Positions 25,620 to 57,734 are shown, counted from the first letter of the stretch. The stretch is 60,387 nt of DNA from Candidatus Moraniibacteriota bacterium (GCA_049290235.1 JBATNG010000004.1:1-60387), one strand, 5' to 3'. Notes: generated by a model not told the origin, from the sequence alone. Translations and numbers: made by a program.

Positions 25620-28427
25620 TTACAAGTACTTGCCGGTGAAGCCTGCTTTGATTTTTTTCAGTTTTTCCGGGACGCCACAGAAAACCAGCGTGCCACCTCG
25701 GTCGCCGCCGTCTGGCCCCATATCGATGACCCAGTCCGAAGCACGGATGACATCGATATTGTGTTCGACGACCAGGACGGTATTCCCCTTGTCGACGAGC
25801 GCATTCAAAACCTCGAGCAACCTCCGAACGTCTTCAAAGTGGAGACCAATCGTCGGTTCGTCGAGGATATAGAGTGTCTTGCCGGTCGATTTCCGAGCCA
25901 ATTCCGTGGCGAGCTTGATCCGCTGGGCCTCACCGCCCGAGAGATTGGGCGCACTCTGACCCAGGACGAGGTAGCCGAGACCGACTTCTTCGAGCACGCG
26001 CAGCTTCTCTTCGATCATCGGCTGGTCGAGGAAGAAATGCCGCGCTTCGGTCACCGTCATTCGGAGCACATCCGAGATATTCAAGCCCCGGTATTGGATC
26101 GCGAGCGTTTTCGCATTGTACCGAGTGCCGCCGCAGACCTCGCAAGGGATGTAGACATCCGGCAACAGATACATCTCGATCTTCTTCAGTCCCCCGCCCT
26201 GGCAAACCTCGCACCGTCCGCCGCGCATATTGAAACTGAAATACGAAGCCGAGTAGCGTTCCTTTTCCGCCTCGCTCGTCGCCGCGAACACATCCCGGAT
26301 GAGACTGAAGATGCCTGTGTAGGTCGCTGCGTTCGAGCGCGGTGTCCGGCCGATAGGATCTTGGGTCACCGTGATGACCTTGTCGATATGTTCGATCCCC
26401 TTGAGCGCCTGGTGTGCACCCGGATCCGTCCGCGCCTGATAGAAGTGCCGAGACAATGCCCGCGAGAGGATATCGTGGACCAGAGTCGACTTCCCCGAAC
26501 CCGACACTCCCGACACGGTGATGAATTTCCCGAGCGGGATCTCGACTGTCACATCCTTCAGGTTGTGTTCGGTCGCGCCGACGATAATGATCGCCTTGCC
26601 CGAGCCATGGCGCGGGGCATCGCGTTGCATCACAGAGCGCTTGCCGGAGAGATACTGGCCCGTCAGCAGTTTCGACTTCATGAGTTTGTCGGGCGTCCCA
26701 GAAAAGATAATCTCACCACCCTCTTTGCCCGCGCCAGGACCGAGATCAATGATCCAGTCGGCTTTGCGCATGATCGAGACATCATGTTCGACGACAACCA
26801 GCGAATTGTTCGCACCTCGCAATTCTTCGAGCGCCCGGATGAGCCGATCGGTGTCGCGACTGTGGAGTCCGACGGACGGCTCATCCAGGACATAGATGAT
26901 ACCCGACAGACCGGACCGGATCTGAACAGAGAGACGGATCCGCTGTGCCTCGCCGCCCGAGAGCGTATCGGCGCTCCGCGACAACGACAGATAGCCGAGA
27001 CCGACCTTGTCGACAGCCGCGAGCCGCATCTCCATCTCATTGAACAACGGATCGATGAGCGATTTCACCTCGCCTGCTTTCAAGAGTTGTGAGCGGAGAT
27101 CGCGGAAGAACAACCGAAGGTCCTCGATCGACTGGCTGACGAAATCATTGATATTCTTTTCGGCGATGAAGACTGCGAGTGATTCGGTCCGCAGCCGCTT
27201 CCCGCCACAATCCGGACAGCGCCGCATGAACATGAAGGTCTCGATCTCGGCGCGGAGATGATCGGATTTCGTCTCACGGTATTTGCGCTCGAGCAATCCC
27301 AGCACGCCCGGGAAACCGAATTCGTCGGCGAGGTCGCGCGACACATCGCCACGGAGGATATAGGTCCGTTGTTTCGCCGTCAGTTTCTTCACTGGCACAT
27401 CGAGCGGAATCCTCTCGCGCTTCGCCATCTCGCGCAGGAGCGCCATCGGGCCATTGCCGTTACCGCGGTCGCTATTCATCTTGCTCCACGGACGGATCGC
27501 GCCTTCGGAGATAGACAGCGTGTCATTGGGGATGACGAGCGCGGGGTCGAATTCGAGCGTCACACCGAGGCCAGCGCAGGTCGGACAGGCGCCTTCGGGA
27601 CTATTGAATGAAAAATGGGCCGGTGAAAACTCTGGCAACTCGATCTGGCAGGATTCACAGCGGTAGCGTTCATGATAGGTGTGCCGATGTTTGCCATCGA
27701 CGAGGAGACGCATCACCCCATGGCCGGTCTGAAATGCTGTGTGGATCGAGTCGAGCATGCGCTCCTTGTCCGGCCGCACAGTATCAAGTGCCAGACGATC
27801 GATGACGACGAGGCACTCTGCCGGCGCCGTCAGATCGACCGTCTGGCGAAGCTCGGGTAGAGCAATCGCCGTGTCGTGGTGCCAGACCCGGACAAACCCC
27901 CAGTCATCGATGAGATCGAGTGCCTCCGCCCAGTTTTTCCCCGCCAGGAGCGGACTGTCCGCGGCGAAAACCAAGGGAGAACCGTTGGGCAAAGAGAGAA
28001 TTTCTTCGAGGATAGCGACGGCCGTCTTACGAGACAGCGTCTGATGGCATTTCGGGCAATGCGGCTGGCCGACCTTGGCAAACAAGAGGCGCAGATAGTC
28101 GTATACCTCCGTCATCGTGCCCACCGTCGAACGTGGACTGCGCGAGACGCTCTTCTGGTCGATCGAGATCGCAGGCGACAGATTGCGGATCGTGTCCACA
28201 TCCGGTTTGTCATAGCCCTCCATGAAGTTCCGCGCATACGCCGAGAGGCTCTCGACATAGCGCCGGTTCGCCTCGGCATAGAGCGTATCAAACGCGAGCG
28301 ATGACTTCCCCGACCCCGACAGCCCAGTCACGACGACCAGGGCATCTCGTGGGATATCGATGTCGATGTTCTTCAGATTGTTCACGCGAGCTCCACGAAT
28401 TTCAATGACACTCTTTTTTCCAGGCAT
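25620..28427 (-). CDS. uvrA: Excinuclease ABC subunit A
   Basis: Two ABC modules (GLSGSGKSS, GVSGSGKST, LSGGEAQR x2) and zinc fingers. The start is placed at MPGKKSVIEIRGAR (28427) because a TTTACC-N17-TATACT promoter lies inside the longer track ORF. Confidence 0.95.
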   Translation of the reverse strand: MPGKKSVIEIRGARVNNLKNIDIDIPRDALVVVTGLSGSGKSSLAFDTLYAEANRRYVESLSAYARNFMEGYDKPDVDTIRNLSPAISIDQKSVSRSPRSTVGTMTEVYDYLRLLFAKVGQPHCPKCHQTLSRKTAVAILEEILSLPNGSPLVFAADSPLLAGKNWAEALDLIDDWGFVRVWHHDTAIALPELRQTVDLTAPAECLVVIDRLALDTVRPDKERMLDSIHTAFQTGHGVMRLLVDGKHRHTYHERYRCESCQIELPEFSPAHFSFNSPEGACPTCAGLGVTLEFDPALVIPNDTLSISEGAIRPWSKMNSDRGNGNGPMALLREMAKRERIPLDVPVKKLTAKQRTYILRGDVSRDLADEFGFPGVLGLLERKYRETKSDHLRAEIETFMFMRRCPDCGGKRLRTESLAVFIAEKNINDFVSQSIEDLRLFFRDLRSQLLKAGEVKSLIDPLFNEMEMRLAAVDKVGLGYLSLSRSADTLSGGEAQRIRLSVQIRSGLSGIIYVLDEPSVGLHSRDTDRLIRALEELRGANNSLVVVEHDVSIMRKADWIIDLGPGAGKEGGEIIFSGTPDKLMKSKLLTGQYLSGKRSVMQRDAPRHGSGKAIIIVGATEHNLKDVTVEIPLGKFITVSGVSGSGKSTLVHDILSRALSRHFYQARTDPGAHQALKGIEHIDKVITVTQDPIGRTPRSNAATYTGIFSLIRDVFAATSEAEKERYSASYFSFNMRGGRCEVCQGGGLKKIEMYLLPDVYIPCEVCGGTRYNAKTLAIQYRGLNISDVLRMTVTEARHFFLDQPMIEEKLRVLEEVGLGYLVLGQSAPNLSGGEAQRIKLATELARKSTGKTLYILDEPTIGLHFEDVRRLLEVLNALVDKGNTVLVVEHNIDVIRASDWVIDMGPDGGDRGGTLVFCGVPEKLKKIKAGFTGKYL

Positions 28428-28458
28428 AGGTTGCGGTCCAGAAGACGAATTGTTTCCG

Positions 28459-28487
28459 AGTATAGCAGATTTTCGCGCGTGGGTAAA
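28459..28487 (-). promoter_or_regulatory. Candidate sigma70-type promoter of uvrA
   Basis: Minus strand: TTTACC (28487-28482), 17 nt, TATACT (28464-28459). Confidence 0.5.
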
Positions 28488-28593
28488 CCGCCGCACCTGC
28501 TAGAGTGAAAAGTATGGAATTGAGAGAGCGAGCCCGACCATCCAACGGCCAAGGTCGCCGATATTTCATGTATCCGCTCCCCATTGTCGGATT

Positions 28594-28637
28594 GAGAAAA
28601 AGAAAACCCCGCCGCTACCGTTCGGTAAAATGCGGGG
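28594..28637 (-). terminator. Intrinsic terminator of the 247-aa gene
   Basis: Minus strand: CCCCGC..UACCG-aa-CGGUA..GCGGGG compound hairpin followed by UUUUCUUUUU. Confidence 0.8.
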
Positions 28638-28660
28638 TCAAAGGACCAAGTATCAAGGGT

Positions 28661-29404
28661 CTAAGAGACCAAAGGTACAGAGTCCGAAGTGCTAACTTGC
28701 GAGACGGGGAACGCGAAGGCTCCATCATCGTGCCAGTAGTTGCCCGGGCGACCGAAGTAGGCATTCACCTGCTGCCCAACGTCGTCACGGCTCGATCCGA
28801 GGATGCTCGGGCGACCGTCGGAATCGATGATGGGTTCGTGGGGCACGGCGACGTAGTAGATGCCCCAGCGCTCCAGTTGCTCATCCGAAATCGCTTCCCG
28901 GATGAGGAGTGCCAGTTCACCGCGGAGGTCATTGGACTTCCCGTAATCACGCTCGCCTCGGGCCCGCAGGTTGGCCGTGGTACGCTCGACATCAGTGTCG
29001 AACTCCTTCTTGCCGAACAAAAGCGCCACCGTGTATTGCTTGCCGGGTTCCAGACGATGCTTCGCGTCGTAGTCCGGGCGAGTGAGCACATCGCGGGCCC
29101 ATTTGGTGGGCATGGAACCAGCGGCGTTGAGACGCACCAGCCACTCTTCTCCCGTCAGACCGAGACCGGTGACGGTGATGAGAAAGCGGCCGTGCTTGTC
29201 GGTCTTGTAAAGCGGGTCGAGGCCGAGGAGCTTGCGGAACTCTTCGCGAGACGGAATGGTCCCGACCACACAAGCTTCGGCGACATCCGCGATACGGCCT
29301 TCACCTAACAATCTTTCTTGAAACACTTCCGGTGTGACACCCTTTTGAACGAGGGTGTCGTAGAGCTTCGTGACTTGAGGGAATGAAATAGTAGAGGTGC
29401 ACAT
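28661..29404 (-). CDS. Hypothetical protein (247 aa), monocistronic, between uvrC and uvrA
   Basis: AGGAG lies 9 nt upstream of the ATG. The gene has its own promoter and terminator. No family was recognised in the translation. Confidence 0.7.
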   Translation of the reverse strand: MCTSTISFPQVTKLYDTLVQKGVTPEVFQERLLGEGRIADVAEACVVGTIPSREEFRKLLGLDPLYKTDKHGRFLITVTGLGLTGEEWLVRLNAAGSMPTKWARDVLTRPDYDAKHRLEPGKQYTVALLFGKKEFDTDVERTTANLRARGERDYGKSNDLRGELALLIREAISDEQLERWGIYYVAVPHEPIIDSDGRPSILGSSRDDVGQQVNAYFGRPGNYWHDDGAFAFPVSQVSTSDSVPLVS

Positions 29405-29575
29405 GTTGCAGTCTCCTAACTATATGCTAGTCCTTGCGGGTAGCGTGCCCTAAGCTCTCGAAAGATTCGAGTTTGCCAGAGCAAAGAAACCTCTCCTCAC
29501 TTGGAGGTTCGACCTCCAAACTAAAGGACTCTGTGCTTTGGCAAACGGTCTGTGATTATTAAGGTGCTAAACGGC
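29405..29575 (-). promoter_or_regulatory. Structured 5' leader (~165 nt) of the 247-aa gene
   Basis: A 14/16-bp helix (GUUUGCCAAAGCACAG / CUUUGCUCUGGCAAAC) encloses an 8-bp hairpin (UUGGAGGU-cga-ACCUCCAA). It is followed by the hairpin CUCGAA-ucu-UUCGAG. Confidence 0.5.
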
Positions 29576-29604
29576 AGTATACACCTTTTTAGGCGTTCTG
29601 TCCA
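29576..29604 (-). promoter_or_regulatory. Candidate sigma70-type promoter
   Basis: Minus strand: TGGACA (29604-29599), 17 nt, TATACT (29581-29576), about 30 nt after the uvrC stop. Confidence 0.6.
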
Positions 29605-29635
29605 GAGTCGAGTAAGGGCTTCCTCAAGGGTTCTC

Positions 29636-30907
29636 TTAGCCCTGGAGGAACTGCTCACGCCGCTTCTTGCGATGGAAGCCGATCGCAAAGCGGTGCGCTT
29701 CGGCATTGGCGAGGAGGATGTCGTGTTCGAAACGCTTCACGAGAGAGCGCGGCCCGATGATGCGGTCAGGCCGGTGCTTCGCATTCTTCACGACGCCGAC
29801 AACGGGGATAGTCAGCTTTTTTTTCTTCAATATCCGGGTCGCGACATCACTCTGGAGCAGCGCCCCGTCGACGACGATGAGCTCGGGCAAGGTCCACTCG
29901 CTGTGCGCCAGGCGGCGCGTCAGGATTTCTTCCAAGGCTGACAGGTCATCACCCCCATGAGCATTGCGGAGCTTGAACAACCGGTACTGGCTCTTCTTCG
30001 CGAGTGCGTGCTGCACGACCGTCATGACGCCGACCGTCGCCTCACCCTGGAGGTGCGCCGTATCATACGCCTCGATCCGCGCTGCGGATGTTTCCTCGCG
30101 GTCCGCCTTCATGAGCGCAACATCGCGGATATGGCCCAGATCAAAGAGAAGCTTTTTGATCTCCTGTGCTTCCTCAAAACGCAAGTCCTTGGCTGCGACT
30201 TTCATCTCGCGTTCCAGATTCTTCACGAGATCGGCTTTCTGTCCGCCAAAAAATAGTGCGATCCGTTTCACGGTCCTCCGATACTCGGCCCCCGTGATGG
30301 TACCGGCACAAACGCCCGGGCACAGGCCGATCTGCGCCTGGAAACACGGGCGCGCTTTTTTCCTTTGTTCATCAGTGAGTTCGGCATACGGCACACACTT
30401 GTCCCGATACGGGAAGATCTGCCGCACGATCCGAAGTGCCGTCCGAAGTGCTTCCCCGCGCGGGTAGGGCCCGAATTTCTCCTTGATCGGGAAGACGAAT
30501 TTCCCTGTCTCGATGTCGCGCTCGCGGACGAGCAGGATGCGCGGATAGTTTTCTTTCGTGATGACGACAAAGTTATAGCTCTTGTCGTCCTTCGCATCGG
30601 TATTGTACGGCGGTAAGTGCTGCTTGATGAGCTGTCCTTCCCGGATGAGCGCCTCGAGCACCGAATCGAGCTGGATCCAACCGATGGCCAGGACGCGCTC
30701 ACGCATGAGGACGAGCTTCGGCCCGCGCGTCTCCTCCAGGTCGGAGCCGAAATAGCTCTTCACCCGGTCTGACAAGATTGTGGCCTTGCCGATGTAGAGG
30801 ATTTCATCGTCCAGACCCAGAAAGAAATATATGCCCGGGGTTTCCGGCAAGGGATTCGCCTCGAGGAAGCGAGTCACACTGATTTTCTTCTGCCAGGGAT
30901 GAGACAT
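29636..30907 (-). CDS. uvrC: Excinuclease ABC subunit C, short form (no C-terminal HhH2 region)
   Basis: 423 aa with GIY-YIG (PGIYFFL...ILYIGKA), a UVR-like helix (LRFEEAQEIKKLL) and the endonuclease-domain end motif (AEAHRFAIGFHRKKR), followed directly by the stop. Confidence 0.85.
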   Translation of the reverse strand: MSHPWQKKISVTRFLEANPLPETPGIYFFLGLDDEILYIGKATILSDRVKSYFGSDLEETRGPKLVLMRERVLAIGWIQLDSVLEALIREGQLIKQHLPPYNTDAKDDKSYNFVVITKENYPRILLVRERDIETGKFVFPIKEKFGPYPRGEALRTALRIVRQIFPYRDKCVPYAELTDEQRKKARPCFQAQIGLCPGVCAGTITGAEYRRTVKRIALFFGGQKADLVKNLEREMKVAAKDLRFEEAQEIKKLLFDLGHIRDVALMKADREETSAARIEAYDTAHLQGEATVGVMTVVQHALAKKSQYRLFKLRNAHGGDDLSALEEILTRRLAHSEWTLPELIVVDGALLQSDVATRILKKKKLTIPVVGVVKNAKHRPDRIIGPRSLVKRFEHDILLANAEAHRFAIGFHRKKRREQFLQG

Positions 30908-30940
30908 AGTGAGTAGTCATGCTATCGCAACTCGACCTCG

Positions 30941-30969
30941 TTGACAATCCTGTACTAACGGTGTATCCT
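30941..30969 (+). promoter_or_regulatory. Candidate sigma70-type promoter
   Basis: TTGACA (30941-30946), 17 nt, TATCCT (30964-30969); divergent from uvrC. Confidence 0.65.
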
Positions 30970-31003
30970 ATCACGAAAGTAACTTACCAAAGGGAGTGGA
31001 GAA

Positions 31004-31252
31004 ATGGCAAGGAAGGCAATGGTGCATCCTACTCATTACTACACCATCCGCGATGCTATCATCGCCGAGATGGGCCCGAAATTCGACCAAACCACATTCA
31101 ATCAGCGCTTCCCCAAGGCAGCCAGGCCGCACAACGTGATCCCTTTTACAGATGGCTACCTTACCCATCGGCGTATAATCGGTGACCTCGTCAGAGACAA
31201 GATGAGGCGTGCCCGCGCAGCGGCACCCAAGGACCAGCTCACGCTCATCTGA
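31004..31252 (+). CDS. Hypothetical small protein (82 aa)
   Basis: GGGAGTGGAGAA precedes the ATG and a consensus-like promoter lies 35 nt upstream. No family was recognised. Confidence 0.6.
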   Translation: MARKAMVHPTHYYTIRDAIIAEMGPKFDQTTFNQRFPKAARPHNVIPFTDGYLTHRRIIGDLVRDKMRRARAAAPKDQLTLI

Positions 31253-31384
31253 TGATTCATCGTTTTTTTGGAGGGGCGCCCCCTCCAACCACGTACTACC
31301 CTGAGCAATTGGTACGTGGTCTTTTTCTATCTTCTGAATAACACACGCTCGCTTCACCTATTACTACCCGAGTTTACGACCATG

Positions 31385-31420
31385 AAAAAACCGGCTGGGA
31401 AGCTGTTGCTCCCCGGCCGG
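31385..31420 (-). terminator. Intrinsic terminator of the 123-aa gene
   Basis: Minus strand: 13-position stem (12 pairs) CCGGCCGGGGAGC-aaca-GCUUCCCAGCCGG followed by UUUUUU. Confidence 0.85.
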
Positions 31421-31446
31421 CTAATACTTTTCGACGTCTTCAAGAC

Positions 31447-31818
31447 TTACCCAAGTGCTGACGTGAGCCTTGACTTAGGTGGTGGTGTGGCCGCTTCGGC
31501 TCTCCGGTACTTTGCCGATCGGCGGGTTTTCCCCTGTTCGAGAAGGAATGACGCTGGGGATAGCCGCGCTCGAACACTCTTGCGCTCCCAATAGCCAAAC
31601 CGAATACGCGAATCCTGACGTGCGATGGACTGTGCGAGCTTCAGTACTTTGAACCCCGGCACCTCGCACACATCATGAACCCCCCCCTTCGTATCTTCCT
31701 GATTGCGCGACCAGGCCTCTTCACCGATACAGTATTCGGCCAAATATGCCGCCACCACCGCATTCGATTCCCCTGACTTAATTTCGAGGAAATACCTCAC
31801 CTTCAGCTTGTCAACCAT
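31447..31818 (-). CDS. Hypothetical protein (123 aa) with a basic C-terminal tail
   Basis: Start chosen at MVDKLKVRYF, which follows GGAGG-tttct-ATG. The track's longer ORF begins at 31884. Confidence 0.6.
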   Translation of the reverse strand: MVDKLKVRYFLEIKSGESNAVVAAYLAEYCIGEEAWSRNQEDTKGGVHDVCEVPGFKVLKLAQSIARQDSRIRFGYWERKSVRARLSPASFLLEQGKTRRSAKYRRAEAATPPPKSRLTSALG

Positions 31819-31898
31819 AGAAACCTCCGTGTAGTTGTGGAACGAACAGAAAAACTGTGCTGCTACGTTAGCACAAAACACCAAAAAATCAAGGGTGA

Positions 31899-31933
31899 CT
31901 AAAAACCGGTGCAGTTAGGCCTGCAACCGGTTT
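31899..31933 (-). terminator. Intrinsic terminator closing the orphan unit
   Basis: Minus strand: AAACCGGUUGCAG-gccuaa-CUGCACCGGUUU (one bulged U) followed by UUAG; five consecutive U in total. Confidence 0.8.
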
Positions 31934-32242
31934 CTCCAACACACATAGTACTCGACAGTCCTACAGACTCCTGGAGTTTATAACGCAGTTCTCTCTGCGA
32001 CACAGGTTTATCAGCTCTTTGCCTAAAAGAGTTTTTCAGACTGGGTGTTGCTTTCCTTAGTGTTGGTAAGGAAAAACATTCACCCCTGTAGCCAACACCA
32101 AACTTTATCAGATTCGCCTCCTTAAGTCCTTTTTGGGACAAGAGGGTTGGGTCACTCTAAGAAAGCTCTCGAGCGCAGGGGTTTCTCAAAAGTTGGGTCA
32201 TAGACCTTTCCTTAATTGATTAACCCCTTGTGAGGTACATAT
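31899..32242 (-). other. Orphan promoter-to-terminator unit: candidate structured RNA, long attenuating leader, or atypical small-protein mRNA
   Basis: It is bounded by a TTGACT-N17-TAAAAT promoter and a strong terminator and is visibly AT-richer than its flanks. It contains many hairpins and mutually exclusive pairings. The only long frame has no ATG/GTG near its AAGGAGG and uses codons rare elsewhere in the window. Confidence 0.45.
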
Positions 32243-32271
32243 ATTTTACCGAGGCTAATTTTACAAGTCAA
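32243..32271 (-). promoter_or_regulatory. Candidate sigma70-type promoter of the orphan unit
   Basis: Minus strand: TTGACT (32271-32266, overlapping the stop of the C39-like gene), 17 nt, TAAAAT (32248-32243). Confidence 0.65.
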
Positions 32272-33062
32272 CTCTTTGGAACAACAATCATCGCCTTGCG
32301 TTCTGTTTTGATGGGGAGGTGTTTGCCCGTCGGATACTCGCGGATCGCGGCGTAGAGTGTCGCTTCGGGATAGCGGTAGCCAGCGCCTTTGCGCGTGCCC
32401 GGATCATTGGTGATGAATTCCTGGGTCGCTGCATCGTATCCCGTGATGACGAGCATATGCTGCAGTGGTCCGGGCTGTGTGAAGTTGGGGTTCTTGAGTG
32501 CCTGGCCATTCGTCGGGATTATGATGAGTCCCTCGGCCGTCGCCCGTCTCAACTCATCGAGCGTGAAATCGTATGCGATTTTGTAGTCCGTGATATCGAA
32601 GTAGTCCCTGAGCAAAATCTCGGCCGTATCCGCTACATCCGTATCGACGCCCTGACCGATCACTTTCTCCTGAAAGCGAGCCATCGCAATGAGCGCCTGT
32701 TTGGCTGTGGCCGGCGTATATGTCTTTCCGGTTCGCCAGGCCGCGACCATCAGCGCCGAAGCTTCCTCACAGCCGTTTTGAAATTCACTTCTGGCCCGCT
32801 CCCCTGTCGGCGCCTGGGAAATAAATGGCACATCTGGCCAGGTCCTCGGCTTGGCGGCTACCGAGACTTCGGGAATAATTTCAGGGACGGGAACCGGTTC
32901 GGCCTCGATCACTTGCTCTTCCTCGACAACCGGCGCAGGAATCGCCTGATCGAATGTCATCCCCTCATCGGCTCGCTCGGTAAAATACTTCAAGGAATAG
33001 TAAACTCCCCAACCAATAGCGGCCGCCCCGAGAATAAAAATAATCGCCTTTCGGAAATTCAT
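32268..33062 (-). CDS. Membrane-anchored C39-like cysteine peptidase domain protein (Peptidase_C39_2-like)
   Basis: 264 aa with an N-terminal TM helix. VPFISQAP...NGCEEAS (Cys), HMLVITGYD (His) and NDPG (Asp/Asn) are arranged as in the C39-like family. Confidence 0.7.
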   Translation of the reverse strand: MNFRKAIIFILGAAAIGWGVYYSLKYFTERADEGMTFDQAIPAPVVEEEQVIEAEPVPVPEIIPEVSVAAKPRTWPDVPFISQAPTGERARSEFQNGCEEASALMVAAWRTGKTYTPATAKQALIAMARFQEKVIGQGVDTDVADTAEILLRDYFDITDYKIAYDFTLDELRRATAEGLIIIPTNGQALKNPNFTQPGPLQHMLVITGYDAATQEFITNDPGTRKGAGYRYPEATLYAAIREYPTGKHLPIKTERKAMIVVPKS

Positions 33063-33132
33063 GCCTCTATCGTAGCATTATAAAGAAAAGTCCCCGCCAC
33101 GCAGCGCGCAACAGGGGCCTGAATCGAGGAGC

Positions 33133-33510
33133 TCATAGTTTTCGGATAGGATTCCGGATTTCTCCCCAAAGACGAAAGCCATTCACCTCGGAATAAGACA
33201 CTCGGAAACCACACCGCCATCCGTTCTTCGTACCTATGAAACCGTAGACAAGTTCGATGTACGCGACAGCGTTGTATCGACGTGGCCCGCGCGGCGGCCC
33301 AACGGAAAAATGTATCGCTTCGAATTCGCGTGTGTCATCGGGATGATAGCATAGCCGGACAGCGTGCATGACCGATGTCTTCACGTGTTGTTGCCAGCCC
33401 CCCTTAGCCTCATCAACACCCTGATGCGGATCAATGAACGCGACGCCAATGATCGATCGTGGGACGGCCCAGGCGGTCCGTGAACGATATCGCCTCATTT
33501 CGACTCCCAT
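33133..33510 (-). CDS. Hypothetical protein (125 aa)
   Basis: Start chosen at MGVEMRRYRS, after AAAGGAGG-ttgtacagt-ATG. The track ORF begins at 33588. No family was recognised. Confidence 0.6.
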   Translation of the reverse strand: MGVEMRRYRSRTAWAVPRSIIGVAFIDPHQGVDEAKGGWQQHVKTSVMHAVRLCYHPDDTREFEAIHFSVGPPRGPRRYNAVAYIELVYGFIGTKNGWRCGFRVSYSEVNGFRLWGEIRNPIRKL

Positions 33511-33696
33511 ACTGTACAACCTCCTTTCGTTCAACCAAAGAAAAAACCGTTGAAGGATTTCTTTCCTGTCGTGACCTATACGGCCCACCGTAATACCATA
33601 ACGCTCGATAGTGAGGTCGTATCGTCGTGCTCCTCAAAATGAATTTGAAAAGAATAGTCCTCCGAACCTAGCACCAAATATTTCCCAGGACAAAAG

Positions 33697-34899
33697 CTAG
33701 CGGCGGCGGCCGAAGTGACGTGTACCGGTGCGGGATGAGGAACGTGGTGACGTTGCCACACGGCGGACACTCTTCACTGCCCGAGGCTCACCCTCTGGGA
33801 CTACTCCGCCCTTGATTGGGAGCGTGATACGCATGAGGCGTTCGATGTCGCGGACATTGCCCTTTTGATCGGGTGTCGCGAAGGAAATCGCCCGGCCCTC
33901 ACGACCCGCGCGAGCGGTGCGGCCGATGCGGTGGACATAGTCTTCCGCCTTTTCCGGCAGATCATAATTGATGACCACTTCGATACCCGAGACATCGATC
34001 CCGCGCGCGGCGATATCCGTCGCCACCATGACACGGTACCGACCCGCCTTGAAACCATCGAGGGCTTCGCGGCGCTGGCTGAGCGAACGGTTCGAGTGGA
34101 TTTCCACCGCCTGATGCCCCTTGTTACGGAGCGACAACGCGATGCGCTTGGCGATGAATTTGGTCCGAGTGAAGACGAGCACGCTGCCCGAATACTCGCC
34201 GAGGAGCTTCAAAAGGAGGTCGAGCTTTTCCATATGCGGGACGAAGAAGAGCTCCTGCGCGATCTTTTCCACGGCAGTACCCGGCGGGGCGACTTCGACC
34301 CGGACTGGAATCTGCAGATACGACGTAGCGAGCCGGACGACTTCGTTCGGCATGGTCGCTGAAAAGAGCATCGTCTGGCGTGCTTTCGGGACATGCTTCA
34401 CGACTTCGGCGATCTGCGGCGCGAATCCCATATCGAGCATGTGGTCGGCTTCGTCGAGGACGAGGATGCGGACGCGTTCGAGGGTCACGGTGCGCTGGCC
34501 GAGGTGATCGTTCAGACGGCCTGGAGTCGCGATGATGACATGTGGATTCGCTCGGATCTGACGCTTTTGCTTCTCCATCGAGTCACCACCGATGAGGACC
34601 GCCGTGCGGATGCCGAGCTTCCGTCCGATACGCTGAAAGGTCTCGTCGACTTGAAGGGCGAGTTCGCGCGTCGGGAGCATGATGAGGCCTTGGCGCGTCC
34701 GGTCTTCGAGGATACGTCCGATCATCGGGATACCGAAGGCGAGTGTCTTGCCTGTACCCGTCTGCGCGATACCCATCACATCCTTGCCAGTGATGGCGAT
34801 CGGGATGGAGCGTTCCTGGATAGGCGTCGGGGTGATGAACTTAAGCTCGTCGAGGACAGCGAGGAGTCCGGGGGCGATACCGAGGTGGTGGAAACTCAT
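33697..34899 (-). CDS. DEAD-box ATP-dependent RNA helicase
   Basis: 400 aa with the Q-motif, AQTGTGKT, VLDEADHMLD, SAT and HRIGRTARAG motifs. Confidence 0.95.
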   Translation of the reverse strand: MSFHHLGIAPGLLAVLDELKFITPTPIQERSIPIAITGKDVMGIAQTGTGKTLAFGIPMIGRILEDRTRQGLIMLPTRELALQVDETFQRIGRKLGIRTAVLIGGDSMEKQKRQIRANPHVIIATPGRLNDHLGQRTVTLERVRILVLDEADHMLDMGFAPQIAEVVKHVPKARQTMLFSATMPNEVVRLATSYLQIPVRVEVAPPGTAVEKIAQELFFVPHMEKLDLLLKLLGEYSGSVLVFTRTKFIAKRIALSLRNKGHQAVEIHSNRSLSQRREALDGFKAGRYRVMVATDIAARGIDVSGIEVVINYDLPEKAEDYVHRIGRTARAGREGRAISFATPDQKGNVRDIERLMRITLPIKGGVVPEGEPRAVKSVRRVATSPRSSSRTGTRHFGRRR

Positions 34900-34953
34900 G
34901 CGGATAGTGTTAGTTACGAAATCAAGTTATTCTGGCACATTCTGCTCATGGCG

Positions 34954-36720
34954 TCAACTCTTGTGCGTTTTTGAGTATTGCTCCCACTGCTTCGCAAAGC
35001 GTTCAGACGACTCGAGAAGCTCGGTGAAAGAGCCCTGAGCAACGATCACCCCGTGCTCGAACATGTAAATCCTATCAAACATCTGGAGCAGATGGAGACG
35101 ATGAATCGATGCGATCACAGTCTTGTCGCGATAGGTCTCGAAGATCTGTTCGTAGATCGCCAATTCATTCGTCGCATCCACGCTCGAAGTCGACTCATCC
35201 AAGAGCAGAATTGATTTCTCCTCGGAGGCCAAGAGCCCACGCGCGAGGGCCAAACGCTGCTTCTCCCCGCCGCTCAAATTAACGCCTTTCTCTACGATAG
35301 AGGAGTCCAGTCCCCGGGGCAACCGTCCGATGACTGAGGCGAAGCGGGCCCGCTCGGCATACTGCAGCACTTCCTCGTCGGAGTGGTCCACACCCATCGT
35401 GATATTGTCCCGGATTGTCGTCGCAAAGATCTCCGGATCCTGCGGAATGAGCGCAATGTCCTCGCTCATGCTGATGAATCCGTTCTTCAGTGGTCGGCCG
35501 TCGAGCTCTACCACGCCAGCGCTCGGCGTATGCAGTCCCCGAACGATCTTCAGAAACGTCGTCTTGCCACTGCCACTCTCGCCGATGACCGCGATCTTTT
35601 CACCCCGTCGCCACGTGAGTTCAATATCTGAAAGCTGCTGCTTCGCCCGCGTCGCCGCTGCATAGGCGAAGTTGAGATGGTGCACTCGACACACCTCCCA
35701 TTGATGCGGAGTCTTGGATTCCTGATCGATCTGCGTCGGAAATGACTCGGCGATTTCTTCGGCGTTCATGACCGCCGTCCGTTCGCGCACGATGTCATTG
35801 TAGAGGTAGGCAAAGGTGAAGAAGACGTCATTGATCCGATTCGTATAACTGAAGAGAGCGAAGAGGGTCCCGGCTAAAAGCACTTCTCCATGGCGAAAAG
35901 CGAGGAGCGTATACATCCCCAGCACGAGAAACTGCAAGAGGCCCGCGCTCATACTCGCCGAAAACCACTTCCATTCATTCAATCGGCTGTTGTGCATGAA
36001 GAGTGCGAGTGGCTTGTGAATCGCCTTCACCAGATCGTGTTCGATGAGGTGCTCGACCCGCAGGATGATGACGGTCGAGATATTGCTCAGCGCATCATAG
36101 ACCTTGGCGGCGATCCGGTTTTCGGCACGATTGAGCTCGCGATACTGTGGAACGAGCCGCTTATCAAAGGTGAGGATAATCCGAAGCGCGACGAAGACGA
36201 CCAAGGAGACCACCCAGATCGCACTGAGGTCGAAAAGCGCGAGTGCGATGAGAGAACCGGTGAAACGAACAATCGCCTCGACAACCTGGAAGCCATGCTC
36301 AGTGAACTGATACACCGCATTGCATCCCTTTTCAATCCGATCGATCGTATCGCCGGAATGATGATCGACATGCCACTCCATGGGGAGCGCCATCGTCCCT
36401 GACAAGAGATACTGCCGATAGTTCGCTCGGACAAGAAACGCATTCTTCCGCTCCATGACACGCGCCGGACCGTGGAAACACCATGTCACGAAATCAAGCA
36501 GCGGCAACGAGGCCATAAAAGCGATGAGCCAGACGATATTCTCCTGATTCACCCCGTTCTCCTGGATCAAGTTCAGGATATGCGCCATGATGATTGGCTG
36601 GAGCAGCATGACAGCGTTCGACATCACAAACAGCCCCACGTAGAAAACCACCTGGCGACGATTCTCGTTCGAGAGTTGCCAGATCTTCCGGACCAAATAA
36701 AAAATTGGGCTGTCCAGCAT
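34954..36720 (-). CDS. ABC transporter, fused permease/ATPase (MsbA-like exporter)
   Basis: 588 aa: six-TM domain plus GESGSGKTT, LSGGEKQRLALARGL and LLLDESTS. Confidence 0.9.
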   Translation of the reverse strand: MLDSPIFYLVRKIWQLSNENRRQVVFYVGLFVMSNAVMLLQPIIMAHILNLIQENGVNQENIVWLIAFMASLPLLDFVTWCFHGPARVMERKNAFLVRANYRQYLLSGTMALPMEWHVDHHSGDTIDRIEKGCNAVYQFTEHGFQVVEAIVRFTGSLIALALFDLSAIWVVSLVVFVALRIILTFDKRLVPQYRELNRAENRIAAKVYDALSNISTVIILRVEHLIEHDLVKAIHKPLALFMHNSRLNEWKWFSASMSAGLLQFLVLGMYTLLAFRHGEVLLAGTLFALFSYTNRINDVFFTFAYLYNDIVRERTAVMNAEEIAESFPTQIDQESKTPHQWEVCRVHHLNFAYAAATRAKQQLSDIELTWRRGEKIAVIGESGSGKTTFLKIVRGLHTPSAGVVELDGRPLKNGFISMSEDIALIPQDPEIFATTIRDNITMGVDHSDEEVLQYAERARFASVIGRLPRGLDSSIVEKGVNLSGGEKQRLALARGLLASEEKSILLLDESTSSVDATNELAIYEQIFETYRDKTVIASIHRLHLLQMFDRIYMFEHGVIVAQGSFTELLESSERFAKQWEQYSKTHKS

Positions 36721-36735
36721 AGTGACGCGAGCGTA

Positions 36736-37122
36736 TTACTCCCAGATGTGAAGCCAGCGACCGAGATACTCGACGACCACGTAGAGGAAGAAGATGTACC
36801 CGATGACACCCGCGATGAGTGTGACAAGGAGGCCGTTCACGATGCGGTTTCGCTCACGCTTGGCCTGATCGAGCGTACAAATGCCCTGTCGGCGCAAGTG
36901 AACGAGATAGGCGAGTCCGAGCGCGAGGAGTCCGGCCAGACGGAACAGCCACTTGTACTCGCCGTAGAAGGTGTCCGAAAGCGACGCGGCAAAGCCGACT
37001 GTCGAGAGACCGAGGAGCACCAAGATGACCGGTGAGAGACAACACAAGGACGCGATGATGACCGGCACAGCGGCGATTTTGAATGCTGCTCTGGTGTTCA
37101 TATTACGATTGAAGGAATACAC
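36736..37122 (-). CDS. MerT-like small membrane protein (Cys-Cys in the first TM helix)
   Basis: 128 aa. IIASLCCLSPVILVLLG resembles the MerT CC motif. There are three predicted TM helices. Confidence 0.4.
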   Translation of the reverse strand: MYSFNRNMNTRAAFKIAAVPVIIASLCCLSPVILVLLGLSTVGFAASLSDTFYGEYKWLFRLAGLLALGLAYLVHLRRQGICTLDQAKRERNRIVNGLLVTLIAGVIGYIFFLYVVVEYLGRWLHIWE

Positions 37123-37513
37123 CGATGCGGTAGGATCCGAGGGCGACGAGGCCGGAGAGTACCGTCCCCCAGACGAGATCCACCACGGTAACGGTTAACG
37201 GCCAATCGCGTACAGTCGCGAGGTTCGTCAGATCATACGTCGCATAAGTCATAAAACCGAATAGTGCGCCGTAGAGAAGGGCTCGCTGCCAACCACCAAA
37301 CTCGAGCGCCGGAACCACCGCAAAGAAAATCACTCCGCCAATAAAGATCAGATAGAAGAGGATGGCTGCGACCCAATTGAATTCAGGCCGAAGAAGAAAA
37401 CCGATCTGCGCACGATAAAAGTCCTTGGCAAAAAACCCCAGCCAGAACATATCGATGACAAAGAAGACCGGGACCGTGAGAAGGTAGAGTTTGACCCAAA
37501 GCAATGTACTCAT
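37103..37513 (-). CDS. DUF2177-family membrane protein
   Basis: 136 aa with four TM helices: FVIDMFWLGF...Y...ATYDLTNLATVRDWP. Confidence 0.6.
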   Translation of the reverse strand: MSTLLWVKLYLLTVPVFFVIDMFWLGFFAKDFYRAQIGFLLRPEFNWVAAILFYLIFIGGVIFFAVVPALEFGGWQRALLYGALFGFMTYATYDLTNLATVRDWPLTVTVVDLVWGTVLSGLVALGSYRIGVFLQS

Positions 37514-37542
37514 CCATTTATTATAACATCCCCTCGTGTGCG

Positions 37543-38700
37543 CTACCGGATCGCTCGGGCGACGGCGGGCACCACACGTTTTTCAAAGGTGTTTGGGATG
37601 ATGTTGCCAGCCGTCGGACGACGGACGAGCGCCGCGAGATTTCTGGCTGCCTTGACGAGCATCACATCCGTGATGCGCTTCACCCGATGATCGAGCGCAC
37701 CGCGAAAGATTCCCGGAAAACCGAGTGAGTTATTGATCTGATTGGCGAAATCCGAGCGTCCTGTCGCCACGACTCGAGCGCCGGCCGCGAGCGCAATGTC
37801 AGGCATGATCTCGGGGACCGGATTGGCAAGCGCGAAAATAATCGCATCTTCCGCCATCGTTTGAACATGTTGCTCCGTGAGGAGACCACCCTTGGAAACG
37901 CCAATAAAAACGTCCGCACCAGCAATCGCGACTGAGAGATCACCGTCAATCGCCTCCGGATTCGTCCGAGCACGGAGCGCCTGTTTGTGCTGGTCCAAAT
38001 CACTACGGTTGGGGCCGAGGATACCGCGACTATCAAGCATGACGATATTTTGTACGCCGTAGAGGAGCAGGAGTTCCGCGATCGCTTGACCCGCCGCCCC
38101 CGCGCCCGAGATGACGACCCAGACCGCTTCCTTTTTCTTCTTCACGACTTTCAGCGCATTGATGAAGCCGGTCAAGACCACCATCGCCGTCCCGTGCTGA
38201 TCATCGTGCATGACGGGAATATTCAATGCATCCTGGAGCCGCCGCTCGATCTCGAAGCACCGTGGCGCCGCGATGTCTTCCAGATTGATACCGCCGAAGC
38301 CGGGCGCGATCCGTTTGACCGTCTCGACGATTTCCTCCGTATCCTGCGTGGCGAGCACGATCGGAAAGGCGTCGACGCCGGCCAGCGATTTGAAGAGCAT
38401 CGACTTCCCCTCCATGACTGGGAGTGCCGCCTCCGGCCCGATATTGCCCAGGCCCAAGACGGCCGAACCATCCGACACGACCGCGACCATATTCCCCTTC
38501 ATCGTGTATTTCACCGCTTCCTCCGGATGCAGCGCGAGATGGCTCGACACGGCTCCGACGCCGGGCGTGTAGACGACCGCCAAATCCTCTTTATTCATCA
38601 CTGGTATCTTCGGTATGACTTCCACCTTGCCGCGCAGTTTTTTGTGAAGCGCGAGGGCGAGCTTGGCATAGTTCTTCTTCACCGTCTTTTTCATTGCCAT
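37543..38700 (-). CDS. NAD(P)-dependent malic enzyme (short type)
   Basis: 385 aa: VYTPGV, VVSDGSAVLGLGNIG, FGGINLEDI, ISGAGAAG. Confidence 0.92.
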   Translation of the reverse strand: MAMKKTVKKNYAKLALALHKKLRGKVEVIPKIPVMNKEDLAVVYTPGVGAVSSHLALHPEEAVKYTMKGNMVAVVSDGSAVLGLGNIGPEAALPVMEGKSMLFKSLAGVDAFPIVLATQDTEEIVETVKRIAPGFGGINLEDIAAPRCFEIERRLQDALNIPVMHDDQHGTAMVVLTGFINALKVVKKKKEAVWVVISGAGAAGQAIAELLLLYGVQNIVMLDSRGILGPNRSDLDQHKQALRARTNPEAIDGDLSVAIAGADVFIGVSKGGLLTEQHVQTMAEDAIIFALANPVPEIMPDIALAAGARVVATGRSDFANQINNSLGFPGIFRGALDHRVKRITDVMLVKAARNLAALVRRPTAGNIIPNTFEKRVVPAVARAIR

Positions 38701-52610: not shown

Positions 52611-53182
52611 AACCCCTCATTATCGCCCTCGTTGTCGTCGTCACCGGCGCTGCGATCTGGATACTCACCTCATCGTCCCAACCGAATTCGGAAGAGACTA
52701 TGAAGAAAACTGAGACCAAGCCCGCTCCAGAGACCGCCAAGACCGACTCGATGGAGAAGAAGGAGATGACTGAGAAGAAGACCGGTACCATCGTCGATGT
52801 CGCTGTCGCCAACGGCAGCTTCAAGACCCTCGTGGCAGCCGTCCAGGCAGCCGGACTCGCCGAGACCCTCTCGGGCACCGGCCCGTTCACCGTCTTTGCT
52901 CCGACCGACGCCGCCTTTGCCAAGCTTCCCGCTGGCACTGTCGAGTCCCTCCTTAAAGACAAGGAGAAGCTGAAGGCTATCCTCACCTATCATGTGGTGA
53001 GCGGCAAAGTGATGTCGACCGACGTGGTCAAGCTCACCTCTGCCAAGACCGTCAACGGCCAGAACGTTACCATCGATGCCAAGAACGGCGTCAAGGTCAA
53101 CAACGCGACTGTCGTCACGGCGGATGTCCCGGCGTCGAACGGCGTCATCCACGTCATCGACACAGTTCTCCTCCCGAAATAG
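52607..53182 (+). CDS. Fasciclin (FAS1) domain protein with an N-terminal TM/signal anchor
   Basis: [30 protein letters not shown]......L........L.YHVV.G and [13 protein letters not shown]. Its ATGA overlaps the TetR stop. Confidence 0.9.
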
Positions 53183-53684
53183 TATGTCGTCCGCAATATG
53201 AACCGGGGGTAGCGCTGCCCCTGGTTCTTATATTGCCGTCACACCAAGCAGCCGCATTTTTAGTAGACCCATGGGATGAGCTGCTTCGTCCGAGCCATAT
53301 AAGACGCGTAGCCGGGAAACGTTCGGCGAGCACGCGTTCCTCGCACCCGAGCTTCACACGAAGATCGATAGCGAGTGCGAGCCAGAGCGCGGCTGAAACT
53401 CCATCCGGCTGATCGAGGGCGAAGCCGAGCATCACCAGGAGAACGGCGGTGTACATCGGGTGTCGAACAAAGTCATACGGCCCGCTGGTGTAGAGCGTCT
53501 GATCATCACGCACCTCGAGCAACACATTGAACCGAAACCGCATCGTCACGACCGCGGTAACTCCGATGAAAATACCGACTCTGACGAACGCATTCGCAAA
53601 TGCACCACCCCAAATTCCCCCGTACCAGGCAAGCAGACCGATGAGCGCGAATTGTATCCCAACGAGAAGGGAGGAGTGGAACAT
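53154..53684 (-). CDS. ICMT/PEMT-family membrane methyltransferase, apparent frameshift near 53315
   Basis: [23 protein letters not shown] is the family core. The canonical C-terminus ([19 protein letters not shown], stop at 53260) is in another frame from about 53315 onward. Confidence 0.7.
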
Positions 53685-56880: not shown

Positions 56881-57369
56881 TTATGCCTGTTTGAGGAGCG
56901 CCTCGAGCTGACTCAGCCCCATCGCGTATCCGGCTTCCATCCCCATCGCGAGGACCGTCTCGAGTTCGGCCCGGGTCGCATACGTCACCGTCGAGACGAG
57001 CTTGGTACCAGTCCCTTCGGCAACGAGTTCCGTCTTCCAGCGCGAGACGGGCATGTCGGTTTTCTTCACGCCCTCTTCATCACAGAAATAGTCATCGCCG
57101 ACCGTACTCTGACCTACCACAATTCCGTCGTATGTCTGGATGCAGTAGTGCCGCTCGCCGTCTGGCCCGAGCATATAGTAGAACCAGCGTCCGCCCTCGC
57201 GGAAATCCATCTCGACCGTCACCGCTTTCCAGGGCTTCGGCGCCCACCACTGTTCGAGCCATTCGCTCTTCGTATGGGCGTCCCACACACTTGCGACCGG
57301 CGCGTCGAACACACGCTCCACGACGAGCGTCGCGTGCTCCATATCCTTGGTAAACTTGGCTTCCGACAT
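56881..57369 (-). CDS. SRPBCC-superfamily protein (Aha1/activator-of-Hsp90-ATPase-like)
   Basis: 162 aa: ..VVERVFDAPVASVWDAHTKSEWLEQWWAPKPW.. This is the typical ArsR-adjacent family. Confidence 0.8.
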   Translation of the reverse strand: MSEAKFTKDMEHATLVVERVFDAPVASVWDAHTKSEWLEQWWAPKPWKAVTVEMDFREGGRWFYYMLGPDGERHYCIQTYDGIVVGQSTVGDDYFCDEEGVKKTDMPVSRWKTELVAEGTGTKLVSTVTYATRAELETVLAMGMEAGYAMGLSQLEALLKQA

Positions 57370-57429
57370 AATGGATTGATGTGATGTATTAGCCCCTCTA
57401 TTCTACACCCGCCCAATCAGTGCCCCGAA

Positions 57430-57461
57430 ATATTCCAACATTCTCAAGAATGTTGGAATAT
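57430..57461. promoter_or_regulatory. Palindrome C (perfect 15-2-15: ATATTCCAACATTCT-CA-AGAATGTTGGAATAT)
   Basis: Overlaps the arsR-2 stop codon and lies upstream of the SRPBCC gene. Confidence 0.7.
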
Positions 57462-57734
57462 CTTGAGACAAGAGAGCATCTTTTTCCCATAAGGTGAAAG
57501 GCTGTGCGCGACCGTTCGGCCCTGGTAGGTTTTATTCAAAAGTCCGGCCTGGACGAGGCGACGAGTATGTTCGGAAATGGTCTTCAAGTTGCATTCGAGG
57601 CGTCGGCTCATATCGTCAAGCGTAATCCCCTCGGAACGGCTTACGAGTTGAAGAATGCTGATTCGGCGATGGTTCGCCACGCCCTTGAAATACCGCTCCA
57701 ACTGCTTGTACGTCTTACTCCCCGCTCTGGCCAT
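57444..57734 (-). CDS. ArsR/SmtB-family transcriptional regulator 2
   Basis: 96 aa: ..GVANHRRISILQL...TLDDMSRRLECNLKTISEHTRRL. Confidence 0.88.
   Translation of the reverse strand: MARAGSKTYKQLERYFKGVANHRRISILQLVSRSEGITLDDMSRRLECNLKTISEHTRRLVQAGLLNKTYQGRTVAHSLSPYGKKMLSCLKIFQHS

Follow-up and report, generated by a model that had tools for sequence, protein, structure and literature searches.

The 60,387-nucleotide (nt) window analysed here, which is the whole stretch of DNA to which all coordinates refer (Candidatus Moraniibacteriota bacterium GCA_049290235.1, JBATNG010000004.1:1-60387), carries on its minus strand a gene for a C39-like peptidase (Peptidase_C39_2; 32268..33062) and, further downstream, a gene encoding a protein of 123 amino acids (aa) of unassigned function (31447..31818). 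Between the two lies a segment of 373 nt with a guanine-plus-cytosine (GC) content of 0.44 (31899..32271, minus strand), which is the subject of this report, followed by a native conserved element (31851..31892, minus strand) composed of TTGATT, a 16-nt spacer ending in TGC, TAACGT, and then AGCAGCAC. The neighbourhood is chromosomal, with genes for UvrC, a DEAD-box helicase, an ABC transporter and malic enzyme. A first-pass annotation, made from the sequence of the window alone, had described the interval as an orphan promoter-to-terminator unit with riboswitch-like alternative pairings and no convincing open reading frame (ORF).

The segment was compared with the corresponding site in related genomes by alignment with loci without it and by blastn with its flanks. 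In-silico removal of 32271..31899 yielded a 266-aa peptidase ending in ...MIVVPKSHP*, with the TGA stop codon (31891-31889) inside the TTGATT of the native element; this arrangement is found in every relative, and most relatives' peptidases also end in proline. With the segment in place, a TGA supplied by the insert (32268..32270, minus strand), lying inside the TTGACT of its promoter, replaces the last codons and shortens the peptidase to 264 aa (...VVPKS*), so that ...PKSHP* becomes ...PKS*; the link of the insert to the peptidase is positional only. Because the deletion restores the relatives' gene end and flank similarity breaks at both sides, the segment is an insertion, and its limits agree to the base with those drawn in the first-pass annotation (31899-32271). 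The trinucleotide AGT is present at both junctions (32273-32271 and 31900-31898), which leaves the limits ambiguous by 3 nt. On the evidence of these alignments, a 373-bp segment (31899-32271) was recently inserted into the last codons of the C39-like peptidase gene of a member of Candidatus Moranbacteria (Patescibacteria).

The relatives came from scanning genomes for the peptidase, which gave 33 loci, all in metagenome-assembled genomes (MAGs) of Patescibacteria type and the closest of them labelled Candidatus Moranbacteria or Moraniibacteriota; closer relatives (L034 onward) were drawn from protein clusters. About 15 related loci do not have the insert, including loci 93–98% identical in the flanks, and the equivalent site is without it in L001–L008 and L034. 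On the peptidase side, L034 shares 93.6% nucleotide identity over 4797 nt, with similarity ending at 32287, and the peptidases of L034 and L035 are 95% identical in amino acids to that of the window; on the other flank, L036 to L039 share 93–97.7% nucleotide identity, with similarity resuming at 31895. In L034–L039, the peptidase gene and the next gene are about 70 nt apart with no insert between them. The conserved motif TTGTGCTAnnnTAGCAGCAC lies 13–35 nt past the end of the peptidase gene in 14 of the 15 relatives that bear it, 140 nt past it in the remaining one (L004), and about 390 nt past it in the window.

This motif belongs to a sequence that is well preserved across the group. Seven relatives have, within 10–35 nt after the peptidase stop, the sequence (CC)TTGAyTTTT...GTTTTGTGCTAnnnTAGCAGCAC...TTTTT, equivalent to 31892-31851 of the window, and in L001–L008 and L034–L039 the pattern TTGAyT-16-TGn-TAnnnT stands just past the peptidase stop, followed by AGCAGCAC and a T-run. 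The element is also kept in L034, where the downstream gene differs, being a 117-aa gene. Its pattern suggests an extended -10 promoter, which probably serves the downstream gene. A hairpin was considered as the conserved feature and rejected, the 5-bp GUGCU/AGCAC pairing not being kept in L001, L006 or L008. Two further loci show other arrangements at this junction. In L004, from a Moranbacteria-like MAG, the same site, from the peptidase stop to the conserved element (L004:6786-6926), holds about 110 nt of different, unrelated extra sequence, and in L046, a contig from the Joint Genome Institute (L046:1-1639), the upstream neighbour of the 123-aa gene is a 390-aa gene on the opposite strand, not the peptidase gene. 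The different segment in L004 suggests that the site between the peptidase gene and the next gene may be recurrently variable, and the arrangement in L046 may be further evidence of a rearrangement hot spot at this junction.

The insert itself was found in L040, L041, L042 and L045, a few near-identical strains of one Moranbacteria species group. L040 carries an identical insert, shows 1 mismatch in 4.7 kb overall, represents the same strain, and is the only other contig with the exact 264-aa (...PKS) peptidase. The inserts of L041 and L042 have one substitution, T-to-C at 32102. A second allele of the 264-aa peptidase is present on L041, L042 and L045, and a third, QQR78938.1, which ends in ...VVPGS, comes from a complete genome of 1.2 Mb. 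Between the window and L041, the insert is 0.26% divergent (1 mismatch in 378 nt), the peptidase gene 2.55% and the helicase gene 6.9%. A binned comparison placed the insert in a near-identical tract running from 32300 to 31480, which includes the whole 123-aa gene, the remainder being a patchwork of 2–40% divergence. Purifying selection specific to the insert was considered and rejected: because the low-divergence tract reaches beyond the insert and spans the entire 123-aa gene, the low divergence points to a recently shared recombination tract and not to selection.

Mosaic relatedness extends to the flanks. Over 26000-38000, the window is closest to L034 on the left of the insert (93.6% versus 81% for L036) and closest to L036–L038 on the right (93–97.7%), and the insert site coincides with the switch of closest relative. 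In the comparison with L041, two small-gene regions, 33100-33500 and 31000-31300, are 15–43% divergent, and their neighbouring genes 0–7%; the former, which lies upstream of the peptidase gene, is a gene of about 125–150 aa, and the latter, located between the 123-aa gene and uvrC, holds ORFs of about 82 and 128 aa. These small genes had no match in Pfam, PHROG or PADLOC. Elsewhere on the minus strand, a 128-aa protein encoded beside the ABC transporter (36736-37122) gave a sub-threshold match to MerT, a mercuric transport family (30.2 bits against a cut-off of 32.9).

The boundaries of the insert are occupied by putative transcription signals. It starts exactly at the -35 box of a sigma-70-like promoter, TTGACT-17-TAAAAT (32243..32271, minus strand), which forms its extreme 5' edge and matches 10 of 12 consensus positions; ten sites in the window, both strands included (120 kb of sequence), match at least 10 of the 12. 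From this promoter, transcription would start near 32236. The insert ends exactly after a strong intrinsic terminator (31901..31933, minus strand), made up of a 12-bp stem with one bulged U, a 6-nt loop and five U residues, with arms AAACCGGUUGCAG and CUGCACCGGUUU at 31933-31903 and a predicted energy of -20.7 kcal/mol. With the insert present, this terminator separates the peptidase gene from the conserved promoter-like element that precedes the next gene. Its GC content of 0.44 compares with 0.54–0.59 in the flanks. Here the first-pass annotation was borne out throughout, having noted a near-consensus promoter that begins on the peptidase stop codon (the TGA at 32270-32268), a 12-bp hairpin followed by a U-run, and an interval richer in AT than its neighbours.

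Between these two signals, the complementary motifs listed in that annotation were all found in place on the minus strand. Four 7-mers of the CAACAC/GUGUUG type, two per orientation, lie within 165 nt (32044-32099 and 31936-31944): the GUGUUGG segment GGUGUUGG (32099-32092); CCAACAC (32066-32060), which occupies the loop of the hairpin UUCCUUA-CCAACAC-UAAGGAA (32073-32053); CAACACC (32050-32044), which belongs with the preceding two to the cluster 32044..32099; and a fourth copy, the GUGUUGG segment GUGUGUUGG (31944-31936). A further segment, AGGGGUU (32228-32222), has two possible partners, AACCCCU (32183-32177) and AACCCUCUUGU (32148-32138). Against 1000 dinucleotide shuffles, 10 complementary 7-mer pairs were observed versus 4.0 expected (p ~0.025), and three 7-mers had at least two partners versus 0.12 expected (p ~0.002). 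This surplus of multi-partner complementarity is genuine, and the CAACAC/GUGUUG copies could represent RNA pairings, half-sites bound by a protein or what is left of a repeat.

Structure prediction gave these segments no role at the terminator. In the predicted ensemble, UUGGAG (31939-31934) pairs with CUCCAG (31976-31971) with a probability of ~0.9, and not with CCAACAC; in the ensemble of the nascent transcript, the 5' arm of the terminator has only diffuse partners (p ≤0.5), and no antiterminator against the terminator stem was predicted. The competing helices of the first-pass annotation have statistical backing, but they are not favoured thermodynamically, and the predicted ensemble does not employ them in controlling termination. 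In the minimum-free-energy structure, CCCUCUU (32146-32140) is predicted to pair with AAGGAGG (32123-32117). The fold of the whole unit reached a z-score of -3.9 to -4.2, about half of which comes from the terminator.

Searches for known RNA families were negative. The comparison with Rfam that had been suggested for the interval brought no relevant match: cmscan at E ≤10 over 31400-32700 returned only a chance snoRNA match inside the peptidase gene, a scan of the 60-kb window at gathering thresholds returned no family, ARAGORN found no tRNA or tmRNA in the window, and Tandem Repeats Finder detected no tandem periodicity at a score of at least 30. The description "riboswitch-like" had to be given up, there being no Rfam family at E ≤10, conservation confined to one species group, no antiterminator, and a z-score of only -2.2 once the terminator is removed. 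Elsewhere in the window, two 301-nt stretches of the minus strand (~57200-57500 and ~53000-53300) reached z-scores of -4.5 and -3.9, stronger than the body of the insert, and an Rfam E-value scan of these stretches gave only a chance match to a MIR477-like hairpin (57409-57480).

We also examined the coding potential of the insert. On the minus strand, a ribosome-binding site (RBS), AAGGAAAGG (32213-32205), precedes a 14-codon ORF (32157..32213 with its RBS) that starts at the ATG at 32201, ends at a TAG (32159-32157) kept in all four copies, and encodes MTQLLRNPCARELS; this ATG ORF (32201-32157) had been missed in the first-pass annotation. It shares its frame with a longer one: frame 0 is open from 32201 to 31899, about 100 codons, save for this one TAG, and includes an 85-codon stop-free run (p=0.03 on the sense strand, p=0.13 when both strands are counted). 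Recoding of the TAG was considered and rejected, as TAG ends 9 of the 28 long ORFs of the window. Part of the stop-free run is an 80-codon ORF from a TTG (31899..32141, minus strand), which has no support as a gene. A perfect AAGGAGG (32117-32123, minus strand) is followed only by CTG (32111, 5 nt away) or ATA (32108, 8 nt away), as the first-pass annotation had pointed out; that annotation needed amending in that a TTG at 32141, which lies upstream of AAGGAGG and has no RBS of its own, opens the 80-codon ORF. About half of the AAGGAGG sites of the window likewise have no start codon behind them.

No coding signature was found in the long frame. Its codon log-likelihood was -0.42 per codon, compared with +0.35 for host genes and -0.29 to -0.35 for the off-frames of real genes; base composition was flat across codon positions, with no 3-periodicity; and the one base at which the copies differ changes an amino acid, F to L. 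The 100-aa read-through sequence had no homologue among 5.8 billion protein clusters, the 80-aa ORF had no match among 1.84 billion representatives (phmmer, full HMMER), and back-translated patterns gave no confirmed match in metagenome and viral contigs. No family in Pfam, NCBIfam, PHROGs or PADLOC was found for the ORFs of the insert, and gene callers did not call the 80-codon ORF on any contig. The best sequence match in the PDB, 3lhl (agmatinase N-terminus, E=0.41), was taken as chance, Pfam scans having given no arginase-family match. AlphaFold2 models of the 80-aa ORF were weak, with predicted local distance difference test (pLDDT) scores of 32–62 for the five models and 62 for the best one, and Foldseek of the AlphaFold2 model against the PDB returned nothing at E<2. 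The absence of homologues, codon signal and fold match, together with the weak model, agrees with the judgement that no convincing ORF is present, and the insert is a true, lineage-specific orphan, with no family or homologue found and no counterpart at the related loci.

Signs of mobility were sought at the ends of the insert and in other genomes. A repeat search with 6-nt seeds and inspection of all four junction rotations revealed no terminal inverted repeats, and blastn with the insert found no second copy in the 60-kb window or the 33 scan loci and only chance matches among phages and plasmids. The gapped motif GGTGTTGG..ACCAACACT..CAACACC had 13 matches in metagenome contigs, and a slightly looser form of it had 7 in viral contigs, none of them similar beyond the motif. 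AGT is the sole junction repeat, and chance alone would give a 3-nt repeat in one case out of 64. A target-site duplication TTGAyTT was considered and rejected, since the right-hand CACCCTTGA represents the ancestral end of the gene (compare L007) and the left-hand TTGACTT therefore belongs to the insert. A group I intron was likewise rejected: no rotation combines a terminal U in the exon with a terminal G in the intron, and no Rfam match was found.

Our tentative interpretation, to which we give a little less than an even chance, is that the insert is an accessory promoter-to-terminator unit whose own promoter gives rise to a non-coding RNA about 335 nt long. It would act as an autonomous, moron-like transcription unit, with a promoter and a terminator of its own and a composition unlike that of its neighbours, and its product would most likely be the ~335-nt non-coding transcript. 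The unit would have spread by homologous recombination in the flanking genes and not by transposition; a recombination-borne module is the simplest account because there are no inverted repeats and no second copy, AGT is the only junction repeat, L004 has a different segment at the same site, and the flanks are mosaic. A more specific version strikes us as improbable: the insert would be an "RNA moron", a non-coding RNA gene complete in itself and exchanged horizontally, and its GUGUUGG and CCAACAC segments would serve as a conformational switch or as target- or protein-binding sites. Several observations weigh against the interpretation as a non-coding transcription unit. The promoter and terminator are consensus matches. 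Without the terminator, the fold has a z-score of -2.2 on the sense and -2.5 on the antisense strand and is not strand-specific, and 8% of background 301-nt windows of the contig reach -2.2; the copies give only two distinct sequences, one base apart, too few for covariation. The native short intergenic spacers of the window have GC contents of 0.38–0.50, the same range as the insert, so its composition is non-coding-like and not necessarily foreign; with a GC content equal to that of native spacers, a foreign origin is not established. No further copy was found anywhere searched, and mobility follows from the presence/absence pattern only. Finally, the promoter, the RBS, the ATG, the 100-codon frame with one TAG and the stop in the U-run would also fit a decayed small gene, as would the 85-codon open run at p=0.03 on the sense strand.

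Such a decayed gene is unlikely, yet it has to be taken seriously. The cassette would have comprised the promoter, a 35-nt 5' untranslated region, the AAGGAAAGG RBS, the ATG at 32201, about 100 codons and a stop in the U-run, and the TAG at codon 15 would be the knockout, leaving a remnant functionless except for terminating peptidase transcripts. Frame 0 is indeed open from 32201 to 31899 but for that one TAG, the stop-free run of 85 codons is unusual on its own strand, the RBS and ATG are well spaced, and the TAG, an ordinary stop in the host genome, is present in all four copies; however, a recent nonsense mutation should spare the coding signature, and neither codon bias nor 3-periodicity was seen, no homologue of the 100-aa or 80-aa sequence turned up in the billions of clusters and representatives searched, and the probability of the open run rises to p=0.13 when both strands are counted. 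We consider it quite unlikely that the insert encodes an orphan small protein, either a Cys-containing one of 69–80 aa starting from CTG/ATA or from TTG 32141, or the 14-aa peptide MTQLLRNPCARELS. AAGGAGG stands 5 nt before CTG, the same spacing as in the GGAGG-ATG of the 123-aa gene, and this RBS is predicted to be sequestered by an anti-Shine–Dalgarno sequence that starts 11 nt past the stop of the short ORF, and ribosomes translating the short ORF would open the CCCUCUU:AAGGAGG helix, which would couple this translation to the second frame; the best AlphaFold2 model, at pLDDT 62, has some predicted secondary structure. Yet there is no canonical start behind the RBS, a lack it shares with about half of the AAGGAGG sites of the window, and homologues, family, fold match and codon signal are all missing, the 3lhl match (E=0.41) being at chance level and the only substitution among the copies changing an amino acid.

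The two remaining accounts are very improbable. One takes the insert as a cis-acting leader or attenuator, riboswitch-like or of the leader-peptide type, by which read-through into the 123-aa gene would be controlled; a long attenuating leader had been one of the three readings of the first-pass annotation. In its favour are the signals found upstream of a same-strand gene (promoter, short leader ORF, competing helices, terminator) and the excess of multi-partner complementary 7-mers, but the 123-aa gene stands directly behind the conserved promoter-like element in L036–L039, L043, L044 and L047, none of which has the insert. In the window, too, the element is intact and lies downstream of the terminator; the terminator 5' arm has no stable partner upstream (p ≤0.5, diffuse); and there is neither an Rfam match nor a run of regulatory codons in the leader peptide. 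Given that loci 93–98% identical keep the gene behind its own promoter-like element in the absence of the insert, the proposal fails, and the insert is not a riboswitch and not a leader of the downstream gene. The other account, a non-autonomous transposable element (a miniature inverted-repeat transposable element, an element derived from the IS200/IS605 insertion sequences, or an intron) inserted at AGT, would explain a clean insertion with a 3-nt direct repeat at its junctions, a hairpin close to one end, and a variable site that holds a different 110-nt segment in L004. Against it stand the lack of terminal inverted repeats, of a second copy in the window, the 33 loci or the metagenome, viral, phage and plasmid collections, and of an Rfam intron or ribozyme match, and the 1-in-64 chance expectation of a 3-nt repeat.

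If transcribed, the accessory unit would offer a clear instance of a streamlined Patescibacteria genome gaining a new transcription unit, with the whole module set between the end of one gene and the promoter of the next and moving with its flanks by recombination among co-occurring strains. The C-terminus of the peptidase tolerates replacement, and a stop codon embedded in the -35 box of the next gene is a conserved arrangement. The locus opens no new class of riboswitch or RNA regulator, and its value is mainly that of a well-delimited candidate; should the "RNA moron" version be true, it would provide a new regulatory RNA for some strains of an ultra-small episymbiont.

Several known systems resemble the insert in part. 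Like riboswitches and T-box leaders, it lies upstream of a same-strand gene, ends in a terminator and contains competing complementary segments; unlike them, it has no Rfam match, conserved aptamer or antiterminator overlapping the terminator, and the gene downstream stands behind a promoter-like element of its own and occurs in relatives that do not have the unit. Attenuators of the ermC type consist of a short ORF with its own RBS, followed by a helix that sequesters a second RBS. The insert shares this succession of a short ORF with an RBS and a helix over a second RBS, but it differs in having no canonical start after the second RBS, no resistance or other gene in the unit, and a strong terminator at its end. 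TIGR arrays, found in candidate phyla radiation (CPR) bacteria and in phages, comprise 5–15 tandem units of ~36 nt with two alternating 8–12-nt repeats beside a Tas gene with a Nop domain (PMC12045711). The insert is similar in being non-coding, in occurring in Patescibacteria, and in having short repeated motifs and a rho-independent terminator; a TIGR- or CRISPR-like array was rejected, the insert having no tandem periodicity and its neighbours no Nop or Cas domain.

The pairing of a promoter with a terminator is the logic by which orphan intergenic small RNA (sRNA) genes are predicted with tools such as sRNAscanner (PMC2916834). Like such predicted genes, the insert has a sigma-70-like promoter, a same-strand terminator a few hundred nt further on, no supported ORF and stable predicted hairpins; unlike them, it contains a 14-codon ORF besides two RBS-like motifs, lies with its 335 nt towards the upper end of the size range, and is confined to a few strains. 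Morons were first described in phages HK97 and HK022 as extra DNA between genes that are adjacent in relatives, and they have their own sigma-70-type promoter, a factor-independent terminator and a GC content unlike that of their flanks, and undergo horizontal exchange (PMC3594210). They differ from the insert in carrying a recognisable protein gene and in residing in phages or prophages, the insert being chromosomal and without a supported ORF, with no PHROG match and with chromosomal housekeeping genes as neighbours; the GC content of the insert, moreover, equals that of native spacers. The likeness lies in the arrangement: the insert, too, separates two genes that close relatives have side by side, as the alignments document, and has a putative promoter and terminator, consensus matches both, at its two edges, and the spread of the module together with its flanks would parallel the spread of phage morons.

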